Assembly (NCBI RefSeq): GCF_057098645.1 | Contig: NZ_CM169472.1 | DNA length: 64,000 nucleotides | Reading direction: 5' to 3' (one strand) | In this document: positions 2,157 through 40,843 of the stretch, piece after piece | How the letters are laid out: each line of letters opens with the position of its first letter | Numbering within the stretch: position 1 is the first letter of the stretch | Program-made: the position numbers and the translations under genes | The notes under the pieces: generated by a model | Told to the model about the DNA's origin: nothing | Seen by the model: only the letters and a program-made list of their open reading frames with translations | Databases searched by the model: none

Positions 2157-5061
<2,905 letters not shown>

Positions 5062-13466: not shown

Positions 13467-13543
13467 GGAGCGGTAGTTCAGTCGGTTAGAATACCTGCCT
13501 GTCACGCAGGGGGTCGCGGGTTCGAGTCCCGTCCGTTCCGCCA
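13467..13543 (+). tRNA. aspV: tRNA-Asp (GTC)
   Basis: Identical 77-nt tRNA-Asp sequence to the rrn-distal copy. Confidence 0.96.
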
Positions 13544-13605: not shown

Positions 13606-13873
13606 ATTTAAATCCCGCTATTTCTTCGGTCTATGATTTTGTTATGCTGTAAATGTGTTAATCACATATGGTAGACCATATCATTAATATTTAATCATAC
13701 TATCGAATCATTCAATTTAAATATATTTGCATGTTATGATTTTCATTTTTCTATTGATTTAATGAATTTATATTTGCTGTTATTTTTGTTTGTTCTGATT
13801 CAAGTGGAGTATATAATTAAAAATCGTTAGCTAAACATTACCATGATTATGACAGGCGAGGGAGTGTCCGATT

Positions 13874-14659
13874 ATGAATTTAAGAAGGGTTTGTTGTATA
13901 TGTGTATTATTCTCGCTGCTTGCAGGATGTGCCTCTGAATCTCCTATTGATGAAAAAAAGAAAAAAACTCAAACCGCACAAAGTTCTATTAATAAAAACG
14001 TTCCCCAGCAACTAACAGACAAAGATTTATATGGTAATGAAACCACACTGGTTGTATCTGAGGAGGATATTCAAGCTGCGCTTGAAGGAGATGAGTTTCG
14101 TGTGCCTCTTAATTCTCCCGTTATACTTGTTCAGTCTGGCAGTCGCGCACCGGAAACCATTATGCAGGAGGAGATGAGAAAATATTATACAGTTGTCACA
14201 TTTTCTGGCATTCCTGACAGGCAAAAACCTGTAACTTGTAATAAAGACAAAAACAAAGATGAAAGTCTGGATGTTGTAGATGCCGAAAATATGAACTGGA
14301 TGCAGGCATTACGTTTTGTTGCGGCAAAAGGCCATCAGAAAGCGATTATTGTTTTCCAGGATACGTTGCAGACAGGAAAATATGACTCTGGATTGAAATC
14401 AATAGTTTGGTCAGATTATAAAAATCAAAAATTGACTGACACGATGTCACTGCGTTATTTGGTTCGATTCACGCTGGTGGATGTGGCTACAGGTGAGTGG
14501 GCTACCTGGTCGCCTGTGAATTATGAATCGAAAGTGATTTTTCCGCAGATAGGGAATAAAAATTCTGACAGCCTTGATGTGGCAGAACAGCAGATTTCAC
14601 AACTTAAGCAGAAAACGTACGCAGCAGTGGTTAAAGATCTGGTGAATCGCTATCAGTAG
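13874..14659 (+). CDS. yafT: lipoprotein YafT
   Basis: 261-aa ORF, lipobox LLAGCAS; AT-rich surroundings typical of island DNA. Confidence 0.75.
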
Positions 14660-15000
14660 TAAGGTTTTATACCAGACGTTTTAATGGTACTTAGCAAGAA
14701 AGAGCATTTTCTTTTCTATTTATACTCTGGTTCAAGTCTGCTAATTAATTTTACATATATATTTTTTTAGGAGTAGTAAAAAACTTTACTAAAGTTATTT
14801 ATTGTTCTCTCAACATATAAGCTGTAGTTCGAGTTTTCGGTTGAACTGTCAAAAATACATCATACACATCTATAAAACAGCAGGTACGGTTAATTAAGAA
14901 TTTTTATTCGTGATTAACCGTACTTCATCATTTTATTTTATAATGTTAAATTGCCTTTTTAAAATATAACAATAATGCAGATGAAAAACTCCCAGGTAAC

Positions 15001-15480
15001 TTAGAAAATCCGTTCACTCCAAAGGCTGTACGCACTGGTTCCGGCGACGCTGTGCTCCCAGTTGATACTCTCATAGGTAAATGACACAGACTCTTCCGGC
15101 TGTCCTGGGCTGTCGTTAATGGTATGGGGAACGGTAAGGCCAATGTTTGAGATCCGGGCGTTAGTCAGTTTCACCTTGTAGTACGGTTCATTAACACCAA
15201 AGCGGTTGGTGCGATAGAATACAAAATCACAGGTCAGACATTCATTCTCCGAAATGGCCTTGCCCAGCAGGGGGGAAGATTTATCCACCGGTTTCGTGAT
15301 GGTCAGCTCCTGGTGGTTGACATTCTGCGCCCGGCTCAGACCATGGGACAGTGACGTCACCATGATCTGATCCTGATGTGCAATCTGGGCTTTGTTACCG
15401 ATGGACGGCATTGACGAGCATCCGGATGAAATCAGCCCCTGAAGTTCTCCGTTCAGTGTCAGATAGACGGGATTTGCCAT
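15001..15480 (-). CDS. hcp: Hcp family type VI secretion tube protein (orphan)
   Basis: 159-aa product from MANPVYLTLNG... with Hcp-like motifs; aaggag RBS upstream of the ATG at 15480; the ORF track extends it upstream without protein-like sequence. Confidence 0.75.
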   Translation of the reverse strand: MANPVYLTLNGELQGLISSGCSSMPSIGNKAQIAHQDQIMVTSLSHGLSRAQNVNHQELTITKPVDKSSPLLGKAISENECLTCDFVFYRTNRFGVNEPYYKVKLTNARISNIGLTVPHTINDSPGQPEESVSFTYESINWEHSVAGTSAYSLWSERIF

Positions 15481-15718
15481 TGTTATTCTCCTTAAACTCA
15501 ATGAGTCGGAAGGACTGGCACGGTGCTGTTGTCCGTTGCCATATCCTGTCCGGTATTTTTCAGCAACAGCCAGCGGCTTAACAGCCCATCCAGCCGTTGG
15601 TTGATCTCTTTTGCTAGCGCCTGTGTGTCCTGATTCTGCGTGCGGGTCTCCTGTGATCTTACCCAGCAATAGTGGACACGCGGCTAAGTGAGTAAACTCT
15701 CAGTCAGAGGTGACTCAC

Positions 15719-16018
15719 ATGACAAAAACAGTATCAACCAGTAAAAAACCCCGTAAACAGCATTCGCCTGAATTTCGCAGTGAAGCCCTGAAGCTTGCTG
15801 AACGCATCGGTGTTACTGCCGCAGCCCGTGAACTCAGCCTGTATGAATCACAGCTCTACAACTGGCGCAGTAAACAGCAAAATCAGCAGACGTCTTCTGA
15901 ACGTGAACTGGAGATGTCTACCGAGATTGCACGTCTCAAACGCCAGCTGGCAGAACGGGATGAAGAGCTGGCTATCCTCCAAAAGGCCGCGACATACTTC
16001 GCGAAGCGCCTGAAATGA
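15719..16018 (+). CDS. insE: IS3 OrfA (InsE) transposase N-terminal HTH part
   Basis: [32 protein letters not shown]... Confidence 0.9.
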
Positions 16019-16881
16019 AGTATGTCTTTATTGAAAAACATCAGGCTGAGTTCAGCATCAAAGCAATGTGCCGCGTGCTCCGGGTGGCCCGCAGCGGCTG
16101 GTATACGTGGTGTCAGCGGCGGACAAGGATAAGCACGCGTCAGCAGTTCCGCCAACACTGCGACAGCGTTGTCCTCGCGGCTTTTACCCGGTCAAAACAG
16201 CGTTACGGTGCCCCACGCCTGACGGATGAACTGCGTGCTCAGGGTTACCCCTTTAACGTAAAAACCGTGGCGGCAAGCCTGCGCCGTCAGGGACTGAGGG
16301 CAAAGGCCTCCCGGAAGTTCAGCCCGGTCAGCTACCGCGCACACGGCCTGCCTGTGTCAGAAAATCTGTTGGAGCAGGATTTTTACGCCAGTGGCCCGAA
16401 CCAGAAGTGGGCAGGAGACATCACGTACTTACGTACAGATGAAGGCTGGCTGTATCTGGCAGTGGTCATTGACCTGTGGTCACGTGCCGTTATTGGCTGG
16501 TCAATGTCGCCACGCATGACGGCGCAACTGGCCTGCGATGCCCTGCAGATGGCGCTGTGGCGGCGTAAGAGGCCCCGGAACGTTATCGTTCACACGGACC
16601 GTGGAGGCCAGTACTGTTCAGCAGATTATCAGGCGCAACTGAAGCGGCATAATCTGCGTGGAAGTATGAGCGCAAAAGGTTGCTGCTACGATAATGCCTG
16701 CGTGGAAAGCTTCTTTCATTCGCTGAAAGTGGAATGTATCCATGGAGAACACTTTATCAGCCGGGAAATAATGCGGGCAACGGTGTTTAATTATATCGAA
16801 TGTGATTACAATCGGTGGCGGCGGCACAGTTGGTGTGGCGGCCTCAGTCCGGAACAATTTGAAAACAAGAACCTCGCTTAG
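16015..16881 (+). CDS. insF: IS3 OrfB (InsF) transposase catalytic DDE part
   Basis: 288-aa ORF in -1 frame relative to insE with integrase-core motifs. Confidence 0.9.
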
Positions 16882-16949
16882 GCCTGTGTCCATATTACGT
16901 GGGTAGGATCAATACCCCGACTCTCCCCGTCCTTAAACACAACCCCCAC

Positions 16950-17720
16950 TCACCACAACCTAAACTCATCCGCATCCCGCCATGCCGGAAACTTTTCTCT
17001 ATATTCCCGCAATGCCATCATCGACAGCTCCGCATCAATGCGCGTTGCCTGATGCGCGTCGGCAGTAGCGATAATCTCGCCCTGTGGATTAATCACCCGG
17101 CTGTCACCGCGATAATGGCAGCCGTTGCCATCGCTGCCGACGCGATTACATCCCGCCACATACGCCTGATTCTCAATCGCGCGGGCCGTCAGCAATGCCT
17201 GCCAGTGCAGAGAGCGCGGAGCAGGCCAGTTGGCGACGTACAGGGCGAGGTCGTAATCGTTGAGATTGCGCGACCACACCGGAAAACGTAAGTCGTAGCA
17301 CACCAGCGGCAAAATACGCCAGCCGCGCCATTCCACAATCACTCGCTCATTGCCCGCTTTATAATGCAGATGCTCATCTGCCATTCGGAACCGATGACGC
17401 TTGTCATAAAAATGTACCGTGCCGCCCGGCTCAACCAGCAAAAAGCGGTTAACCGAACCAGACTCCGTTTGTAATGCAACACTGCCTGCAATCAGCGCAT
17501 TGCACTGCTGCGCTTTAGCTGTCATCCAGTTCACTACGTCATCTTGCGCTAGCGACGAAGCTGCCGCTTCCATGGCAAAGCCGCTGGTAAACATCTCCGG
17601 TAGAACGATCACATCGCGCCCGGTAATACCTTCCAGTTGACGATCAAAATGACGCAGGTTGGCAGGACCATCCATCCACACCAGTGGTTGCTGCAAAAGC
17701 GTAATCTTCAAACCAGGCAC
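16950..17720 (-). CDS. yafV: C-N hydrolase (omega-amidase family)
   Basis: Nitrilase-superfamily ORF; probable GTG start (MPGLKITLLQQ) with aaggag RBS. Confidence 0.85.
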   Translation of the reverse strand: MPGLKITLLQQPLVWMDGPANLRHFDRQLEGITGRDVIVLPEMFTSGFAMEAAASSLAQDDVVNWMTAKAQQCNALIAGSVALQTESGSVNRFLLVEPGGTVHFYDKRHRFRMADEHLHYKAGNERVIVEWRGWRILPLVCYDLRFPVWSRNLNDYDLALYVANWPAPRSLHWQALLTARAIENQAYVAGCNRVGSDGNGCHYRGDSRVINPQGEIIATADAHQATRIDAELSMMALREYREKFPAWRDADEFRLW

Positions 17721-24454: not shown

Positions 24455-24811
24455 TTACATCTGGGCTGAAAACTCACGTTCTAAGACATCAACAATGAGC
24501 TGGTTTTTTGAAATGGAATGTTGTCTGGCGACGATGGTCAGCCGCGAATCAATGTGATGAGGAACACGAAGCGTCAGGCGTTTTTGCTCTTCTTCTTCAC
24601 GAAAAGGGGCAATACCGTCCTCTTCACAATCCGCCATCCACTCATCCAGCGCGCTTTCGCCCTCACGATATAATGCCTCAATGCTTGTGGCTACAAAGTC
24701 ACAATAACCGTTTACATTGAGGAATTTGCCGCGAAATGCATTGATATCGGCTTCAAATGTCACTGCGGCTGGTTGACCTTTAATTGTGATAATGTTCGAT
24801 GCTTTATTCAT
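24455..24811 (-). CDS. HicB-like antitoxin (N-terminal HicB fold, C-terminal ribbon-helix-helix)
   Basis: 118-aa ORF; C-terminus RLTLRVPHHIDSRLTIVARQHSISKNQLIVDVLEREF resembles an RHH DNA-binding domain; 8-nt overlap with the upstream ORF. Confidence 0.55.
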   Translation of the reverse strand: MNKASNIITIKGQPAAVTFEADINAFRGKFLNVNGYCDFVATSIEALYREGESALDEWMADCEEDGIAPFREEEEQKRLTLRVPHHIDSRLTIVARQHSISKNQLIVDVLEREFSAQM

Positions 24812-25103
24812 AATCTACCCCTACACAGTTAACAAACCACTCCTTAAGACCTGCTACTGCGCCTTTATCCATCACATTCTTTGGATGTGGCTCATGTGTA
24901 CTGAATTTGGTCGTTCCAATCTGAAATTTCCTTCTGGACCCATTGTTATTTTTTATTGTTCCACCCGCCGCTTTAATGAGCGCAACAACATCATCCCATT
25001 TAATTCCAGATTTTGGCGGCTCCGTCATTACATCGTCGAATGTTTTTCTATGGCGGGAGCCTAGCGCGCTGACCTTAATCATACTATCAATCCATGACAT
25101 CAT
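24804..25103 (-). CDS. HicA-like (YcfA family) putative mRNA-interferase toxin
   Basis: 99-aa ORF (true start may be internal; MTEPPKSG... gives 74 aa); GSRRKF...THEPHP...GLKEW resembles HicA; translationally coupled to the downstream ORF. Confidence 0.45.
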   Translation of the reverse strand: MMSWIDSMIKVSALGSRHRKTFDDVMTEPPKSGIKWDDVVALIKAAGGTIKNNNGSRRKFQIGTTKFSTHEPHPKNVMDKGAVAGLKEWFVNCVGVDYE

Positions 25104-25186: not shown

Positions 25187-26959
25187 TCAACTCACTGCCC
25201 CCATAATCTTCAACTCCAGCTCATCCGGCACTTCGTTATACGACAGCACATGCAGCCCCGGCGCAAACAACCTTGCATAGCGAGCCAGCAAAGGGCGCAG
25301 CTGCGGCGGCACCAGCAGTACCGGGTCTTTCCCCGCCGCTTTCATCTGCTCTTTTACCTGCGGCATCGTGCTCTGGAACTGGTTGAGCATATTCGGGTCG
25401 ACCGGCACGCTGTCGAGCATCACTTTGCCGCCCTGTTGCGCCTGATTCACCACGTTGGTCAGCAGATTTTCCAGCTCATTATTCAGCATATACACCGTAA
25501 GCTCCTGCTTGCGAACGAACGGATGGGTAATGCTGCGCCGCAGCGCCAGGCGTACATCGGCTGCCAGCAGAATGTGATCTTTAGTCACCGTGCTACTGGC
25601 GACCAGCACGGTGGCGATGGTGACGATATCGCGCAGGGAAACGCCTTCGGTCAGCAGCGCACGGTACACTTTCAGCAACTGGCTGTAATTCAGCGCCGCG
25701 CTCAAATCCTCCGCCAGGCGCGGTGCCATCGACGACAGGCGGTTATGCAACTGTGTGATGTCATCATAGTTAAACAAATCAGGAATATAGCTGCGCACAA
25801 TCTTGTTTACATGGGTGGCAATCACGCTGGCGCTGTCGATTACCTGATACCCCATATTCAGCGCCTTCGCTTTCTGCGCGGGCTGGATCCAGGTCACCGG
25901 CATCCCGTACGCCGGGTCGTTCCCCAGCACGCCGTCTATCTCGCCGTAGGTTTCGCTGGAGGGCAGGGCCATCAGTTTATCCGCCGGAATATCCGCTTCA
26001 TCGGCCTTAATGCCGTTGATGAAAATAGCGTACTGGCTGGGCTTGAGGCGGAAATTTTCCCGAATGCGGATCTCCGGCAGCAGCACGCCGTTGCCGTCAG
26101 AAATCACCTGCCTCACGCCGCGAATCCGCTGGGTGAGTGGGTTGCCCTGCGCTTTATCGACCAGCGCTACTAGCTTGTAGCCAAGGCTTAAACTGATAGG
26201 CTCGATAAGCGGAATGGTTTCCCAACTGACCTGTTGCTCGCTGGTTTCAGTGATAGTGCGGGTCAGCGTTTCGAGGCTTTTCTCTTCCGCCTCCGCCGCC
26301 TGCGGGCGTTTGCTCATCCGCCAGCCGGTAAAACCCAGTAGGGCGCTGAACAGCAAAAACGGCAGGTGCGGCATCCCCGGCACCACTGCCAGCACGAACA
26401 TGATCCCAGTGGCGGTGTAGAGTACCGTCGGGCTTGCCAGCAGCTGGTGGCGCACGTCATGGGCGATATCGCCGTTATCGCTGACGCGGGTGACGATTAT
26501 CGCCGCCGCGGTGGAGAGCAGGAGGGAAGGGATCTGCGCCACCAGGCCGTCGCCGATGGTCATCAGCACATACTGCTGGAAGGCGGCATCGGCGCTCAGG
26601 TTGTATTTGAAGATCCCGATACAGACGCCGCCGATCAGGTTGATCGCCAGAATCATCATCCCGGCGATGGCGTCCCCGCGCACAAACTTAGATGCCCCGT
26701 CCATTGCGCCGTAGAAATCGGCCTCGCTGGCAACATCTTTACGCCGGGTTTGCGCCTGCGCCTGGTTGATCAACCCGGCGTTAAGATCGGCGTCAATCGC
26801 CATCTGCTTGCCGGGCATCGCGTCCAGGGTAAAGCGGGCAGAAACCTCGGAAATACGCTCGGCCCCTTTGGTGACGACGATAAAGTTGATTGTCAACAGC
26901 GTCAGTAAATCCGAGCGCGAAAGTATTATTGCCGCGCTGCACGGGCAGTCGATTTTCAA
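25187..26959 (-). pseudogene. lfhA: FlhA-like lateral-flagellar (Flag-2) export gene remnant, N-terminally truncated
   Basis: 590-aa ORF matching FlhA from ...VVTKGAERISEVSARFTLDAMPGKQM onward; N-terminal transmembrane region missing. Confidence 0.8.
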
Positions 26960-27656
26960 CGGTGGCGGGTTGTCGCCGTTAAATAAAATCAGCCCGTCTC
27001 ATCCGCCAAAACCTGCCACCGTGGCGGTGCCGGAAGAGACGGAGAAAAAAGCGCGCGACGTCAATGAGAAAACGGCGCTGCTGAAGAAGAAATCCGCCAC
27101 CGAGCTTGGTGAGCTGGCAACCAGTATCAACACCATTGCCCGTGATGCGCATATGGAAGCGAATCTGGAGATGGAGATTGTCCCGCAGGGATTACGCGTG
27201 CTGATTAAAGACGACCAGAATCGCAATATGTTCGAACGCGGCAGCGCGCAGATTATGCCGTTCTTTAAAACGCTGCTGGTGGAGTTAGCGCCAGTGTTCG
27301 ACTCGCTCGATAATAAAATTATTATTACCGGGCATACCGATGCGATGGCCTACAAAAACAATATCTACAACAACTGGAACCTTTCGGGTGACCGCGCGCT
27401 TTCGGCTCGTCGGGTGCTGGAAGAGGCCGGAATGCCGGAAGATAAAGTGATGCAGGTAAGCGCAATGGCGGACCAGATGCTGCTGGATGCCAAAAATCCG
27501 CAAAGCGCGGGCAATCGGCGTATTGAGATTATGGTGCTGACCAAAAGTGCGTCCGATACGCTGTATCAATACTTTGGTCAGCATGGGGATAAAGTGGTGC
27601 AGCCGCTGGTGCAAAAGCTGGATAAGCAGCAGGTGCTTTCGCAGCGAATGCGCTAA
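26895..27656 (+). pseudogene. lafU: MotB/LafU-like lateral-flagellar motor gene remnant (C-terminal OmpA-like domain only)
   Basis: C-terminal part of the 296-aa ORF has MotB/OmpA-C features (IIITGHTDAMAY..., NRRIEIMV); N-terminal part of the ORF overlaps lfhA antisense and is not protein-like; start coordinate approximate. Confidence 0.7.
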
Positions 27657-29536: not shown

Positions 29537-30067
29537 ATGGAATGGTACATGGGCAAATATATTCGTCCCTTATCCGATGCGGTATTTACCATCGCATCTG
29601 ATGACCTGTGGATCGAGAGTTTAGCGATCCAACAATTACACACCACGGCAAATTTACCCAACATGCAGCGCGTAGTGGGGATGCCAGATTTACACCCCGG
29701 ACGCGGCTACCCGATTGGCGCAGCGTTCTTCTCCGCAGGCCGTTTTTACCCAGCACTGGTCGGCAATGATATCGGCTGTGGCATGGCGCTATGGCAAACA
29801 GATATTCTCGCTCGCAAATACAACGCCGATAAGTTTGAAAAGCGATTATCAGCTTTGGATGACGTTGCTGAAGAAAGCTGGCTGGAGGAAAACCTGCCGT
29901 CAGCATTTGCACAGCATCCGTGGCGCAGCTCGCTTGGCTCTATCGGTGGCGGCAATCATTTCGCTGAACTGCAACAAGTTGATCAAATCATCAACGCTGA
30001 ACTGTTTGCACTGGCAGGTCTGGATGCGCAGCATCTGCAACTGCTGGTTCATAGCGGCTCGAGGGGG
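29537..30067 (+). pseudogene. RtcB-family RNA ligase (PrfH-coupled), 5' fragment interrupted by an IS element
   Basis: 187-aa ORF with RtcB-like motifs (GMPDLHPGRGYPIGAAF, GGGNHFAELQ, HSGSRG); reading frame broken by the insertion. Confidence 0.8.
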
Positions 30068-30094
30068 GGTGCCCCTATTAAGTTGTCAAGCATG

Positions 30095-31291
30095 TTATGA
30101 CGCCTGCGGGGTATAAAAAGTCCCGTCGCGCATCATGGCGAACAGAACGTCGCAGCGTCGTCTCGCCAGGGCGATAAGCGCCTGATTGTGTCGTTTTCCC
30201 TGACTCATTTTGCGGGTGTAGTAAGCCCTGGAGAGCGGATCCCTGAGCGCGGCGAAGGCCGACAGGAACAACGCCCGTTTGAGAGCTTTATTACCCCGTC
30301 GCGAGGGATGCTCACCGCGTATTGACGAGCCGGATCGCCGAGTTACCGGCGCAAGGCCAGCATAAGCAGCGAGATGTGCGGCAGAGGCGAAGGCGCGGCA
30401 GGCGACCTCGGTGAGGAGTCTGGCTGCGGTCCTGACACCGACTCCGGGCATACTGGTCAGGACCGGGTAAAGAGGGTGAGCAAGAACTCGCTGTTCTACC
30501 TCAAGCACCACCTCGTCTCTTTGCTTACGCAGCGTGATGAGCTGGAGTGCCAGACGTGGCAGTACTACGGCAGCGGCATTCGTGCCGGGAACGACGACGG
30601 TTTGTTCGGCCAGTGCCTGAGCTATGTCTGCTGCAAGGCGTTTACCCAGACGAGGCGCAAGTTTGCAGAGCTGGGCTGCCAGCTTCTTCTCACCCAGCGA
30701 AGCGAGTTTTTCTGGTGAGGGATATCGCTGGAGAAGATCGAGTACCGCCGGGTGATCAAGTCTCGGACCGAGAACGCGCTCCAGTGCCGGATGTATCTGG
30801 GTCAGAAGGCCGCGGATACGGTTGCTGGCCTGCGTTGTCTGTGCGGCAAGATCATCATCGAAGCCGCAGAGCATGGAGAGTTCGGCGATTTGCTCGTCAG
30901 CCAGTTTCAGCGTGCGTAGCGCGTGAGGCAGGGTACGGGCAGCTTCGGCAATGATGGCAGCGTCACGAGCATCAGTTTTAGCTTCACCGGCGTGTAAGTC
31001 GGCTATGCGGCGCATGGCCAGTCCAGGGAGGTATCCGACAAGGACTCCTTCTGAGCGGGCAACGGCGACAGGTAACGCACCGATGGTAGCTGGCTGATCA
31101 ACAACCAGCAGTATCTGACCATGTTGTTTCAGGTCAGATATTAGCGACCTGAGTTTGTTTTCGTCGTTGGGTAATGCTTTATCGAACAGGCGTTTACCTG
31201 AACGATTAATGGCTACAGCGTGATGCGTATCTTTACCGACATCAACGCCGATAAAGACCTGGACGGATTCGTAATCGCTGGATTCGGTCAT
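30095..31291 (-). CDS. IS110-family DEDD transposase/recombinase
   Basis: N-terminal IGVDVGKDTHHAV (RuvC-like DEDD) and C-terminal MPGVGVRTAARLL...AYAGLAPVTRRSGSS...GNKALKRAL motifs. Confidence 0.88.
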   Translation of the reverse strand: MTESSDYESVQVFIGVDVGKDTHHAVAINRSGKRLFDKALPNDENKLRSLISDLKQHGQILLVVDQPATIGALPVAVARSEGVLVGYLPGLAMRRIADLHAGEAKTDARDAAIIAEAARTLPHALRTLKLADEQIAELSMLCGFDDDLAAQTTQASNRIRGLLTQIHPALERVLGPRLDHPAVLDLLQRYPSPEKLASLGEKKLAAQLCKLAPRLGKRLAADIAQALAEQTVVVPGTNAAAVVLPRLALQLITLRKQRDEVVLEVEQRVLAHPLYPVLTSMPGVGVRTAARLLTEVACRAFASAAHLAAYAGLAPVTRRSGSSIRGEHPSRRGNKALKRALFLSAFAALRDPLSRAYYTRKMSQGKRHNQALIALARRRCDVLFAMMRDGTFYTPQAS

Positions 31292-31517
31292 TCTGTCTCC
31301 CTTGTATATGGGTTAACCAGATAACCACGGGGAGCAGGTACCGGCATCCACGTTACAGACGGTCCCGGCAAAAGTGCCTGACCTGACCCCTATTAGCGGT
31401 TACCAGCGCCCCACCAGACCCGGTGACATCACCCCCCGGATCATGGACGACTGGGGGCAGTAATCATGCCGGGTCTGGCTGGCTAACACCCCATTATAAG
31501 GGGTACGAATAAAGTAA
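31292..31517 (-). ncRNA. candidate IS110-type bridge (guide) RNA in the element's 5' non-coding arm
   Basis: ORF-free, about 225 nt; perfect 10-bp inverted repeat ccagacccgg/ccgggtctgg (31414-31423 and 31469-31478); 8- and 9-nt exact matches to the target flank and the element terminus. Confidence 0.4.
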
Positions 31518-32137
31518 CGGGGCAGTCTATTTTACAGCGGCATATTGCCTCGTTTTCGCATCATGGTTTGCCTGAAGGCAGTGACGATGCGCTACGGTAC
31601 ATTGCGGAACATGACGATGCGCTGGCATTTGCGCGTATTAATAGCCAGATGATCGCTTTGCGCATAATGCAACAGGTTAAGGCCACGGGAAGTCCGGTTC
31701 TGGATGTGGCGCATAACTTTGTTAGCGCGTGTCAAATCGGCGATCAACAGGGCTGGTTGCATCGTAAAGGTGCCACGCCGGATGACAACGGTCTGGTGAT
31801 TATTCCCGGTTCACGCGGTGATTACTCCTGGCTTGTACAGCCTGTTGCGAACGAAAAAACGCTCCACTCGCTGGCGCATGGGGCAGGGCGTAAATGGGGG
31901 CGCACCGAGTGTAAAGGGCGTCTGGCAGCGAAATACACGGCGACGCAACTCTCGCGTACTGAACTTGGCAGTCGGGTAATTTGTCGCGATAAACAACTCA
32001 TCTTTGAAGAAGCGCCACAAGCCTATAAATCGGCTGAAAGCGTGGTGCAATGTCTGGTGCAGGCCGGATTAATTATTCCTGTCGCGCGGCTGCGTCCGGT
32101 GCTAACGCTCAAAAACAGTGGAGGGAAAAAAGGATGA
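31518..32137 (+). pseudogene. RtcB-family RNA ligase (PrfH-coupled), 3' fragment
   Basis: Frame resumes ...GQSILQRHIASFSHHGLPEGSDDALRY...; ends 3 bp after the prfH start. Confidence 0.8.
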
Positions 32138-32748
32138 TCTTGCTACAACTCTCCTCTGCTCAGGGGCCGGAAGAATGTTGTCTCGCAGTGAAAAAGGCGC
32201 TGGACAGGCTGATTAAAGAAGCTGCTCGACAAGACGTCGTGGTAACAGTGCTGGAAACAGAAACAGGTCGTTACTCTGACACGCTGCGTTCGGCGCTGAT
32301 TTCTCTGGATGGCGACAACGCATGGGCGTTAAGCGAAAGTTGGTGCGGCACTATTCAGTGGATTTGTCCGAGTCCGTATCGGCCTCATCATGGGCGCAAA
32401 AACTGGTTTCTGGGCATTGGGCGTTTTACCGCTGATGAGCAGGAGCAATCCGATGCGATCCGGTATGAGACGCTGCGTTCGTCGGGGCCGGGTGGTCAAC
32501 ATGTCAATAAAACCGACTCGGCGGTACGCGCCACGCATTTGGCATCCGGTATTAGCGTGAAGGTTCAGTCAGAACGCAGTCAGCATGCTAACAAGCGGCT
32601 GGCACGATTGCTGATTGCCTGGAAGCTGGAGCAACAGCAACAGGAAAATAGCGCAGTGCGGAAATCGCAGCGGCGAATGTTCCATCACCAGATTGAACGT
32701 GGCAACCCGCGACGAACGTTCACAGGGATGGCTTTTATCGAAGGATAA
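32134..32748 (+). CDS. prfH: peptide chain release factor H homolog (GGQ motif), apparently full length
   Basis: 204-aa product [15 protein letters not shown]... with [16 protein letters not shown]; gaggg RBS; overlaps rtcB 3' end. Confidence 0.85.
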
Positions 32749-40640: not shown

Positions 40641-40716
40641 GCCGATATAGCTCAGTTGGTAGAGCAGCGCATTCGTAATGCGAAGGTCGTAGGTTCGACT
40701 CCTATTATCGGCACCA
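40641..40716 (+). tRNA. thrW: tRNA-Thr (CGT anticodon)
   Basis: gccgatatagctcagttggtagagcagcgcattcgtaatgcgaaggtcgtaggttcgactcctattatcggcacca, 76 nt. Confidence 0.95.
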
Positions 40717-40843
40717 TTTAAATCAAGTAGTTACTCCATATTTAAATACACCACCTTTTCCTGCTGTGCCGTATTTGTGCCATTGTAACCCTGGCAATTA
40801 ATCAAAATACTGTTCTGACATCAGGCAATACAGGTGCAGACAT

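Follow-up and report, generated by a model that had tools for sequence, protein, structure and literature searches.

How did a single hcp gene come to lie beside a complete IS3 element at the aspV locus, in DNA that contains no functional type VI secretion system (T6SS)? The question was raised by an earlier note on the window (the whole 64-kb stretch of DNA analysed here), in which it was proposed that an IS-mediated deletion or rearrangement may have removed the rest of a secretion cluster. Based on comparison with related genomes, we consider it very probable that the region is the scar of an aspV T6SS island, which was lost in an O145:H28-like E. coli lineage through an IS3-associated deletion that was followed by later imprecise excisions. 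The features that bear on this reading are listed below in window coordinates, with a slash marking a junction.

13467-13543, plus strand: aspV, tRNA-Asp(GTC) gene (ARAGORN), at which the island integrated and which bounds it on the left; at the same position in all comparison genomes
13874-14659, plus strand: yafT-like lipoprotein gene (261 aa; open reading frame), the first after aspV; in intact and deleted islands alike
14660-15000: intergenic DNA 3′ of hcp, the native end of the island; GC 0.31, 100% identical in PapM-32-1
15001-15480, minus strand: hcp (tssD), intact, 159 aa, with AAGGAG 7 nt 5′ of the ATG
15498-15653, minus strand: 3′ remnant of vasL, the last 51 codons (residues 402-452 of 452) plus stop, cut at the left end of IS3
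15651-15653: left junction triplet CTG, the last vasL bases, contiguous with intact vasL (..TCTCCTG/GTACC..)
15654-16911, plus strand: complete IS3, 1258 bp, orfA/orfB at 15719-16881 with a programmed -1 frameshift
15654-15693 and 16872-16911: IS3 inverted repeats, 28/40 positions matching, ends TG...CA
16912-16914: right junction triplet ATA, contiguous with GTAGTA/ATACCCCG beside yafV in K-12 (yafF) and FDAARGOS_943/1337
16912-16949: 38-bp spacer from IS3 to the yafV stop, examined by comparison with ISAs1-family ends
16950-17720, minus strand: yafV (2-oxoglutaramate amidase; NF007757, 544 bits; annotation), a core gene and the right border of the island

The identity of the lone gene is clear. 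In an NCBIfam profile search, its product scored 204.6 bits against TIGR03344 (TssD; trusted cut-off 58.9) over residues 1-156, and it matched the full model of Pfam PF05638 (E 3.3e-24). The protein is 100% identical over 159 aa to the Hcp encoded after vasL-tssM in the intact island of PapM-32-1, as are 994 bp of DNA of the hcp region, so that its ortholog is a gene of a T6SS cluster. The description of a 159-aa Hcp-family gene with a strong ribosome-binding site, located after aspV and yafT, was thus borne out. The 261-aa neighbor carries PF25851 (YafT) on its precomputed record and had no NCBIfam match; it is annotated as WP_001053626.1 in PapM-32-1, O145 and other genomes, and its gene shares both the aspV-adjacent position and 83% DNA identity with K-12 yafT. 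The AT-rich setting that had also been described applies to the intergenic DNA (GC 0.29-0.31 at 13700-13999 and 14600-14899), but not to hcp itself, where the windows have a GC of 0.41 and 0.51.

When 22 proteins of the intact island were used in tblastn searches of the 64-kb window, only Hcp (100% identity) and VasL residues ~402-452 were recovered, confirming that other T6SS genes are absent; the window holds no functional cluster (core tssA-tssM plus vgrG/PAAR). The vasL remnant, found with the VasL protein of PapM-32-1 and also by alignment to intact vasL, is annotated as "incomplete, missing N-terminus" in Z1323HEC0399 and in O145 genomes.

The adjacent element has the length, inverted repeats and orfA/orfB frameshift of IS3 (IS3 family, IS3 group), and its orfB scored 339 bits against NF033516 (cut-off 160). 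The copy in Z1323HEC0399, which is 100% identical to that of the window, is annotated as IS3 with a programmed frameshift and transposase WP_085947771.1, as are IS3 copies in four other strains examined with respect to the transposase; across E. coli, IS3 copies are 99.5-100% identical to the one described here. It is the only IS3 copy within the 64-kb window and begins, as had been noted, 174 bp away from the A of the hcp start codon, with 173 bp lying between hcp and the element.

Re-inspection of the flanks upheld the reported mismatch between the left (CTG) and right (ATA) triplets, and the 4-bp flanks likewise differ, so that there is no target duplication. Among six control IS3 copies in other genomes, five are bounded by perfect 3-bp duplications (AGT, ATA, ATC, ATG, AAC), and the sixth lies between two different truncated genes, hence is itself at a rearrangement. 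Given that five of the six controls carry a duplication, its absence here is informative and indicates that this copy does not occupy a simple insertion site, although it does not argue against the element being IS3. One of the controls, from FDAARGOS_1337, had been considered as a possible intermediate with IS3 near yafV; it was rejected as such, as it is an ordinary separate insertion inside ISEc1 with an AGT/AGT duplication.

The earlier note had suggested comparison with strains that carry a complete cluster at aspV and a search for the deletion junction, and both bear its proposal out. Over the left flank of IS3 (14660-15653), the window and PapM-32-1 are 100% identical; in the latter, the sequence continues into full-length vasL, then tssM, tssA, vasI, tssH, tssL, tssK, tssJ, tagH, tssG, tssF, tssE, tssC and tssB, beyond which another hcp, two vgrG modules and PAAR genes extend as far as yafV. 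In the ancestral order, tssM-vasL-hcp, hcp is the final gene. The intact hcp-vasL junction is found in 30 genomes at ≥99% identity, and 553 genomes cover at least 80% of the junction query. On the other side, the right flank of IS3, ATACCCCGACTC, directly continues GTAGTA in K-12 and in FDAARGOS_943/1337 (GTAGTA/ATACCCC), the latter being two strains that still carry the island. Since the left flank is contiguous with intact vasL and the right flank with the yafV side, IS3 sits precisely on the junction of a 36-40 kb deletion. The missing segment, whose ends lie at codon 401 of vasL and 38 bp away from the stop codon of yafV, amounts to 40.45 kb when measured in PapM-32-1 and to 35.9 kb when measured in FDAARGOS_943. 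The suggestion that an IS-mediated deletion took away the rest of the secretion cluster is thereby supported. In the 38-bp spacer, the first ~8 bp resemble the outer end, in degenerate form, of an ISAs1-family (H-repeat, yafF) remnant when set against the complete ends (..GGGCTTTCGTAATCTTGCCCTG) in PapM-32-1 and FDAARGOS_943. The affiliation of the window is indicated by positions 39001-62768, which are 99.9% identical to every listed O145:H28 genome, the next best match being 98.8%.

Five alleles of the junction were distinguished in related strains, given here by the window positions that they join.

15653/IS3/16912: window type, strings GGGTCTCCTGTGATCTTACC and GGTAGGATCAATACCCCGAC; complete genomes Z1323HEC0399 and Z1323HEC0422
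15361/IS3/16912: UTME-3 type, a further 292 bp lost, into hcp, with IS3 retained; string GACGTCACCTGATCTTACCC
15651/16827: C325 type, 1-nt overlap (C); string GGGTCTCCAGTTGGTGTGGC
15651/16915: RM8995 type, IS3-free, 2-bp CC overlap, GGGTCT[CC]CCGACTC; string GCGGGTCTCCCCGACTCTCC
15481/A/16917: RM13516 type (RM13516, RM12761), IS3-free, loss up to the hcp ATG with 0-bp overlap and one extra A; string TTTGCCATTACCGACTCTCC

Every allele with any IS3 sequence has the identical right junction. This includes C325, in which a deletion ran from the left flank into the element and left an 85-bp stub of its right end. Where IS3 was lost, the junctions overlap by 2 bp (CC), by 1 bp (C), or by 0 bp with an extra A, and right breakpoints are located 0-5 bp from the IS3 end. 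The scar of the RM13516 type could have been derived from either the IS3-bearing or the RM8995-type allele. In UTME-3, the joint reads GTCACC/TGATCT, and the deletion ends one base from a TGATCT hexamer (15363-15368) that is identical to the IS3 terminus; were the absence of the A at 15362 a sequencing error, this would simply be a deletion across 6 bp of microhomology between the hexamer and that terminus.

The earlier note had named an identical arrangement without IS3 as something that would speak against its proposal. Such an arrangement does exist: hcp, the vasL stub and yafV are found together without IS3 in 20 complete O145:H28 genomes, plus further draft assemblies, and these far outnumber the three complete genomes with a whole IS3 at the site (the two of the window type and UTME-3). 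One might therefore suppose that hcp is naturally isolated here, or that the island was deleted without any IS, with IS3 an unrelated later insertion into an ancestral IS3-free arrangement. However, a simple insertion would have produced a 3-bp duplication, and none is present. Moreover, the IS3-bearing allele contains two extra bp of vasL (TG) and five extra bp on the yafV side (ATACC, or ATA plus a shared CC), all of which it shares with the intact genomes and which the IS3-free alleles do not have; ancestral bases, once lost, cannot be restored by insertion. Two of the three complete genomes with a whole IS3 also retain the TG. Together, the retained TG and ATA(CC) bases and the C325 stub, at the identical right junction, indicate that the IS3-free state is derived and the IS3-bearing state ancestral, so that the arrangement without IS3 does not refute the deletion. 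Nor is an hcp gene with a 51-codon fragment of vasL 17 bp away naturally isolated. We regard a later insertion as highly improbable. The chance that the junction is an assembly artefact, in which the IS3 repeat mis-joined two distant contig ends, appears negligible: IS elements are frequent points of mis-assembly, but identical junctions occur in the independently assembled complete genomes Z1323HEC0399 and Z1323HEC0422, the right junction recurs in UTME-3 and C325, and loss of the island from the lineage is independently evident from the IS3-free scars of over 20 genomes.

A more serious alternative concerns the route by which the island was lost. Two similarly oriented IS3 copies, one in vasL with a CTG duplication and the other beside yafV with an ATA duplication, could have undergone homologous recombination, leaving one hybrid IS3 with the left flank of the former and the right flank of the latter. 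This route predicts a single intact element with mismatched flanks, each contiguous with intact sequence, and thus, judged by sequence only, accounts for the window just as well. E. coli carries IS3 in multiple copies (an IS3-containing query matched a median of 4 places per genome, with a maximum of 19), and CTG and ATA occur at the right positions in the intact sequences (TCTCCTG/GTACC and GTAGTAATA/CCCC), making both hypothetical insertions possible. Yet neither the single nor the double insertion was encountered in 5,426 complete genomes or in metagenome contigs, and the 292-bp IS-retaining deletion of UTME-3 would need another nearby insertion and recombination, so that a one-ended process is already required at the locus. 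Recombination between two copies is accordingly a possibility that we take seriously, though at somewhat less than an even chance.

Between aspV and yafV, the ancestor carried a full yafT-linked T6SS island, made up of hcp-vasL-tssM ... tssB, another hcp, vgrG/PAAR effector modules and ISAs1 remnants. Most likely, IS3 inserted at ATA beside yafV, and an event initiated by the transposase at its left end (IRL) removed the DNA as far as vasL but spared the IS itself. Such a one-ended "adjacent deletion" may have been completed through microhomology end-joining by the IS-excision enhancer, IEE. In sister strains, the same IS3 copy later gave rise to a further 292-bp deletion that entered hcp and again retained the IS (UTME-3), a partial deletion into the element (C325), a complete but imprecise excision (the 20 O145:H28 genomes), and a larger excision (RM13516/RM12761).

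Intermediates that might settle the sequence of events were sought. Neither IS3 beside yafV together with the island, nor IS3 in vasL with the rest of vasL on its other side, was present among the 5,426 complete E. coli genomes; a query spanning hcp-IS3-yafV was covered to at least 80% in only four of them, and in none was the island on either side of IS3. The reciprocal junctions, CGTAGTAATA/TGATCTTACCCAGC and GTGGGTAGGATCA/CTGGTACCGCG, gave 0 exact matches each in metagenome contigs. As no intermediate was found, we infer the first step and its direction; the common right junction only shows that the later events took place at the left end, and need not place the first event there.

The series of one IS3-associated deletion and subsequent imprecise IS3 excisions with 0-2 bp of microhomology fits the pattern of IEE, as reported in O145:H28. 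The O145:H28 strains RM13514 and RM13516 have iee and no T6SS (PMC5567499). IEE promotes excision of IS3-family elements, with deletions next to the IS that range from a few nt to >40 kb; it has microhomology end-joining activity in vitro, and acts on the copy-out-paste-in families IS3, IS1 and IS30 (PMC9943667). Typical scars have 2-4 bp of microhomology and intrude into the IS or the flank (bioRxiv 10.1101/2023.06.07.543989). The junctions described here are of this type, as the element belongs to a family on which IEE acts, and short microhomology or fill-in is combined with breakpoints at or near the IS ends. The resemblance extends to the IEE-promoted excision of IS629, an IS3-family element, and the IS-associated deletions in EHEC (Kusumoto et al., 2011, as summarised in PMC9943667 and bioRxiv 10.1101/2023.06.07.543989): here, too, there is an IS3-family element in an EHEC lineage that is iee-positive according to the literature on reference strains, the element is excised imprecisely at joints with 0-2 bp of microhomology, deletions enter the IS (C325) or the flank (RM13516, UTME-3), and the reported size range covers 36-40 kb. 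It differs in that the element is IS3 rather than IS629, and in that these are natural alleles of isolates instead of laboratory products, for which dependence on IEE and transposase would be presumed. In addition, IEE models do not specifically predict IS retention, whereas the first large deletion here kept the IS. A second parallel is the mcr-1 transposon Tn6330, from which ISApl1 has been lost (Snesrud et al., 2018, as summarised in bioRxiv 10.1101/2023.06.07.543989), a natural allele series at one site in which a copy-out-paste-in IS was removed with 2-4 bp microhomology scars that nibble the IS or the flank; as summarised there, that case concerns an IS30-family element in a plasmid context with no large adjacent deletion.

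A close counterpart of the lost island is the aspV/yafT-linked T6SS island known as "T6SS2" of APEC/ExPEC (PMC4232414) or "T6SS/1, subtype i1" (PMC5422975), the numbering of T6SSs differing between papers. The site is the same (tRNA-Asp, yafT ... yafV), the intact relatives share the gene set, and the hcp region is 93-94% identical to UTI89, F11 and APEC strains. Shrunken, probably non-functional versions of this island have been reported in several strains; in the present case only hcp and 51 vasL codons remain, with IS3 on the deletion junction, and no description of this IS3 scar was found in the literature searched. The O157:H7 T6SS island, OI-7 (PMC5363993), occupies the same aspV site in the lineage considered closest to O145:H28, and its absence from O145:H28 has been called an "evolutionary regression". 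However, no O157 strain was among the matches listed, out of 579 genomes matching this hcp region at ≥90% identity, which suggests that the O157 island differs; the remnant matches the island type of PapM-32-1/UTI89. The aspV locus of K-12 (yafT-ykfM-yafU′-yafF′-yafV) has the same borders, likewise is without a T6SS, and carries the same ISAs1/H-repeat remnant (yafF), ending ..GTAGTAATACCCCGACTC beside yafV. It differs in having neither hcp nor IS3, besides the divergence of yafT. K-12 ykfM has the same length (159 aa), position and orientation as hcp; the idea that it is a diverged Hcp, and thus that an orphan hcp is the general state at aspV, was rejected, as BLASTP gave no alignment between them and ykfM has no Hcp similarity.

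What, then, of the surviving gene? The hcp ATG is only 17 bp beyond the vasL stop, which leaves no space for a promoter of its own, and a consensus scan, which is a weak negative, predicted no promoter-like site on the minus strand at 15481-17000, between hcp and the far end of IS3. It is most likely a promoterless, decaying relic rather than a working effector gene, the operon promoter and the secretion machine having gone. That it is silent is suggested by the promoter scan and by operon logic, while the protein is still identical to the intact-island Hcp. In UTME-3 hcp is truncated, and in RM13516/RM12761 its native 5′ region has been replaced, both of which are consistent with an absence of selection to keep the gene. 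Alternatively, the orphan Hcp might still function, whether by serving another secretion system in the genome as its tube or chaperone subunit or in some role that does not involve secretion, with transcription supplied by IS3. The intact reading frame, strong ribosome-binding site and identity to the intact-island Hcp would speak for this, as would conservation of hcp in most genomes of the lineage. Nevertheless, O145:H28 has been reported to be without OI-7 and to have no genes of T6SS-1 or of T6SS-3, T6SS-2 being represented by just five homologues (PMC5567499, PMC9144400), and no complete T6SS gene set was found in it (PMC9144400); no promoter-like site was predicted on the hcp strand, whether upstream of hcp or within IS3; the alleles of UTME-3 and RM13516/RM12761 do not favor a retained function; and identity is to be expected in any case, since the deletion is recent within one clone. 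We consider a functional Hcp distinctly unlikely, and its retention for a T6SS-independent function is the less likely of the two novel readings of this locus.

The other novel reading is that the alleles form a natural time series, of a rare kind, that traces a single IS3 copy within one iee-carrying clone and comprises 36-40 kb and nested IS-retaining deletions, a partial deletion inside the element, and two or more imprecise excisions of independent origin. We think this doubtful, if conceivable; the event is of a known kind, a clear but ordinary IS-driven gene loss and routine genome reduction. If the time series were real, mapping the alleles onto the O145:H28 phylogeny could separate IEE models that invoke end-joining after double-strand breaks from those that invoke strand switching during copy-out, and it could reveal that, in natural populations, IS3 ends direct deletions to cryptic end-like sequences.

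Comparative papers had recorded only that the island is missing from O145:H28, and the junctions explain the absence of the aspV T6SS at base-pair resolution. They also show that an IS-free junction may be younger than an IS-bearing one, which is a caution against taking "no IS present" to mean that an IS was uninvolved. The five alleles can serve as PCR markers to tell apart the sublineages of an important Shiga-toxin-producing clone, and as natural substrates for tests of the removal of IS3-family elements by IEE. Compared with its closest genome, Z1323HEC0399, the window differs by SNPs, does not have the 17-kb island that is present at a tRNA-Thr gene in that strain, and carries one extra IS2.

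The core genes of the window run in the order rnhA, dnaQ, aspV, a yafT-like gene, a spacer, a 159-aa ORF, a 1258-bp element, yafV, ivy, and fadE.

Features of the aspV-yafV interval
13467-13543: aspV, tRNA-Asp
13874-14659: yafT-like lipoprotein gene, 261 aa
between the yafT-like gene and hcp: AT-rich spacer, 340 bp
15001-15480, minus strand: hcp, 159 aa
between hcp and IS3: gap of 173 bp
15654-16911: IS3, 1258 bp
between IS3 and yafV: gap of 38 bp
16950-17720, minus strand: yafV, with ivy and fadE beyond

The 159-aa product is a clear Hcp/TssD protein (TIGR03344, 204.6 bits against a cut-off of 58.9; Pfam PF05638, E = 3.3e-24), and its ATG is preceded at 7 nt by AAGGAG, in keeping with the strong ribosome-binding site that had been claimed for it. 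The 1258-bp element is IS3, with TG...CA ends, terminal repeats that agree at 28 of 40 positions, and orfA/orfB at 15719-16881 (orfB reaches 339 bits against the IS3-family transposase model, where the cut-off is 160). The window holds no other IS3 copy, and this one is 100% identical to the annotated IS3 of strain Z1323HEC0399. The earlier note had described a lone hcp in an aspV/yafT context beside an IS3 with unequal flanks, and all of these observations were correct; on re-inspection, CTG precedes IS3 and ATA follows it, and a matching target duplication is absent.

As controls, six unrelated IS3 copies were drawn from other genomes. Perfect 3-bp duplications flank five of them (AGT, ATA, ATC, ATG, and AAC). 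The sixth, in the unrelated strain Eco_24-2013 (NZ_CM176494.1, 2868965-2870359; stretch L026), has CTG and AAA flanks and no duplication; with a truncated mobQ on one side of it and a frameshifted dgcT (GGDEF-domain) gene on the other, it is another IS3-associated rearrangement junction. Because five controls are duplicated and the sixth lies at a rearrangement, we conclude that a simple IS3 insertion as a rule leaves a duplication, and that where it is missing the copy signals a rearrangement.

What was rearranged can be read from strains that retain their type VI secretion system (T6SS) island. The segment 14660-15653 is present in 579 of 5,426 complete E. coli genomes, as a single chromosomal copy every time, and is 100% identical in the intact-island strain PapM-32-1. 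The 156 bp adjoining IS3 are the 3′ end of vasL, which is full-length (452 aa) in PapM-32-1 and of which the window keeps only residues 402-452. Upstream of vasL, PapM-32-1 carries tssM, tssA, vasI, tssH, tssL (icmH), tssK, tssJ, tagH, tssG, tssF, tssE, tssC, and tssB, followed by a second hcp, two vgrG modules with DUF4123, DUF2169, and PAAR genes, ISAs1-family remnants, and finally yafV. The intact hcp-vasL junction occurs in 30 genomes at ≥99% identity, and in 553 genomes the match extends over 80% or more of the junction query. Beyond IS3, the right flank ATACCCCGACTCTCC runs straight on from GGGCTTTCGTAGTA in K-12 (yafF pseudogene, H-repeat/ISAs1 remnant), as it does in two genomes that have kept T6SS genes, FDAARGOS_943 and FDAARGOS_1337. 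Set against complete ends of the ISAs1 family, the ~8 bp immediately past IS3 appear to be the degenerate tip of this remnant. Since the left flank matches intact vasL and the right one continues the yafV-side sequence, both are ancestral sequence, and the two points are widely separated where the island is intact (by 40.45 kb in PapM-32-1 and by 35.9 kb in FDAARGOS_943, as derived from coordinates). A tblastn search of the 64-kb window with 22 island proteins of PapM-32-1 matched only Hcp and VasL 402-452, which agrees with the reported absence of other T6SS genes. The proposal that a secretion cluster had been lost by IS-mediated deletion is likewise supported: 36-40 kb was deleted, and IS3 lies precisely on the junction.

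Window 39001-62768 is 99.9% identical to every O145:H28 genome among the matches listed (next best genome, 98.8%), and the sequence flanking the locus agrees at 99.9-99.98% with that of RM8995-C1, Z1323HEC0399, UTME-3, C325, and RM13516. Twenty complete O145:H28 genomes (RM13514, RM12581, RM8995-C1, 16003, and 12E115, for example) have hcp, the vasL stub, and yafV without IS3; their junction reads GGGTCTCCCCGACTC and is also found in three draft or other assemblies. The earlier note had held that its proposal would be refuted by strains with this arrangement and no IS3, which would show hcp to be naturally isolated here. Such strains do exist, but they are not counter-examples, as their junctions mark them as descendants. 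The window junction is GGGTCTCC-TG-[IS3]-ATA-CCCCGACTC, in which TG agrees with intact vasL (TCTCCTGGTACC) and ATA with the intact yafV side (GTAGTAATACCCC), whereas in the IS3-free allele TG, IS3, ATA, and two of the six C's are gone, equivalent to a deletion between two CC dinucleotides. As an insertion could not have recreated the lost ancestral bases, the IS3-bearing allele is, by this reasoning, the older one. C325 reads GGGTCTC[C]AGTTGGTG, with its left flank fused to IS3 position 1174, and retains the final 85 bp of IS3 together with the identical right junction (GGATCA followed by ATACCCC), a stub that confirms the IS3-bearing state as older.

Altogether, there are five distinct deletion alleles across 26 complete genomes. 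In UTME-3, IS3 is complete and the right junction unchanged, while the left junction is shifted by 292 bp to 15361 inside hcp (GTCACC joined to TGATCTTACCC), so that the first ~40 hcp codons are gone. One base beyond this breakpoint, hcp contains TGATCT (15363-15368; ~3990-4010 of the UTME-3 stretch, L004), the hexamer with which IS3 begins. The match may be coincidental, or it may reflect a cryptic end or, should the missing A be a sequencing or assembly error, a microhomology of 6 bp. RM13516 and RM12761 have lost 15482-16916, starting at the base that follows the hcp ATG region, with an extra A at the joint (CATT-A-CCGACTC). The right junction is identical in every allele that retains any IS3 sequence, and the right breakpoints of the IS3-free scars all fall within 5 bp of it, whereas the left breakpoints differ (15653, 15651, 15481, and 15361). 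After the large deletion, the same copy underwent one deletion that kept the IS, one that removed part of it, and two or more excisions that were complete but imprecise, with 0-2 bp of microhomology.

For the initial loss, the most likely course, to which we give roughly an even chance, is that IS3 would have inserted at ATA beside yafV, and that a transposase-initiated, one-ended event at its left terminal inverted repeat would then have deleted leftwards as far as vasL. The UTME-3 allele shows that this very copy is capable of an IS-retaining adjacent deletion. The main rival, possible rather than probable in our estimation, is that recombination between two direct IS3 copies removed the island; it predicts the same sequence as the one-ended model. 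No intermediate state was found in the 5,426 complete E. coli genomes or in the metagenome contigs searched. For the later excisions, the IS-excision enhancer (IEE) is considered the most likely agent: iee is carried by the O145:H28 strains RM13514 and RM13516 (PMC5567499), IEE promotes transposase-dependent excision of IS3-family elements (PMC9943667), and it typically leaves scars with short microhomology that extend into the IS or its flank (bioRxiv 10.1101/2023.06.07.543989).

In the intact island, hcp closes a long co-directional gene run and starts only 17 bp from the vasL stop; its promoter therefore almost certainly sat in the deleted part. A consensus scan, a weak indicator, detected nothing promoter-like on the hcp strand from hcp to the distal end of IS3. 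Reports on O145:H28 state that it lacks OI-7 and the T6SS-1 and T6SS-3 genes and holds only five T6SS-2 homologues (PMC5567499, PMC9144400), and it therefore has no machine to secrete Hcp. Among sister strains, hcp is truncated in UTME-3 and has its 5′ region replaced in RM13516/RM12761. The surviving gene is probably a recent relic. Its sequence is intact and unchanged, which would be explained by how young the deletion is and should not be taken as a sign of selection. An inverted repeat (GTACGGTTAAT...ATTAACCGTAC) at 14880-14925, ~80-120 bp downstream of the hcp stop and followed by a T-rich run on the minus strand, could have terminated transcription of the ancestral operon; it is absent from the output of a simple terminator scan.

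The lost island is the aspV/yafT-linked E. coli T6SS, named T6SS2 in PMC4232414 and T6SS/1 subtype i1 in PMC5422975, of which shrunken, probably non-functional versions occur in several strains (PMC5422975). K-12 holds an independent remnant at the aspV site (yafT-ykfM-yafU'-yafF'-yafV), in which ykfM (1758-2237 of the K-12 aspV stretch, L011) equals hcp (15001-15480) in length (159 aa), position, and strand. No similarity of ykfM to Hcp was detectable; the two are unrelated, and the coincidence could mislead synteny-based annotation. IS-mediated deletion and IEE-associated excision are already well described, and the locus adds one more case of a familiar process; we found no description of this scar and its allele series in the papers searched. 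Its value lies in recording IS3 activity cleanly in nature and in providing sublineage markers for O145:H28.

Elsewhere in the window, a truncated flhA-like gene (lfhA) adjoins lafU (~25187-27656). This is apparently the known scar left where the lateral flagellar (Flag-2) cluster was deleted, which K-12 and PapM-32-1 also have, and a HicAB toxin-antitoxin pair (~24455-25082) lies directly beside it. ISEc20 (IS110 family) occupies rtcB beside prfH (~29752-32226; transposase ~30095-31291, minus strand), as in Z1323HEC0399, and is missing from PapM-32-1. None of the complete genomes in the collection is identical to the window. Z1323HEC0399, otherwise nearly identical, differs by a few SNPs and by a 17.3-kb element (P4-like integrase, DUF927 protein, Abi protein, and two IS3-family copies) at tRNA-Thr CGT, which is empty in the window (40641-40722); the window also has an extra IS2-like element at ~62.77 kb (62769-64000 in the window; orfA product, 62815-63225). 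As all O145:H28 complete genomes among the matches listed stop matching at 62768 and lack this IS2, this insertion appears to be specific to the window's strain.
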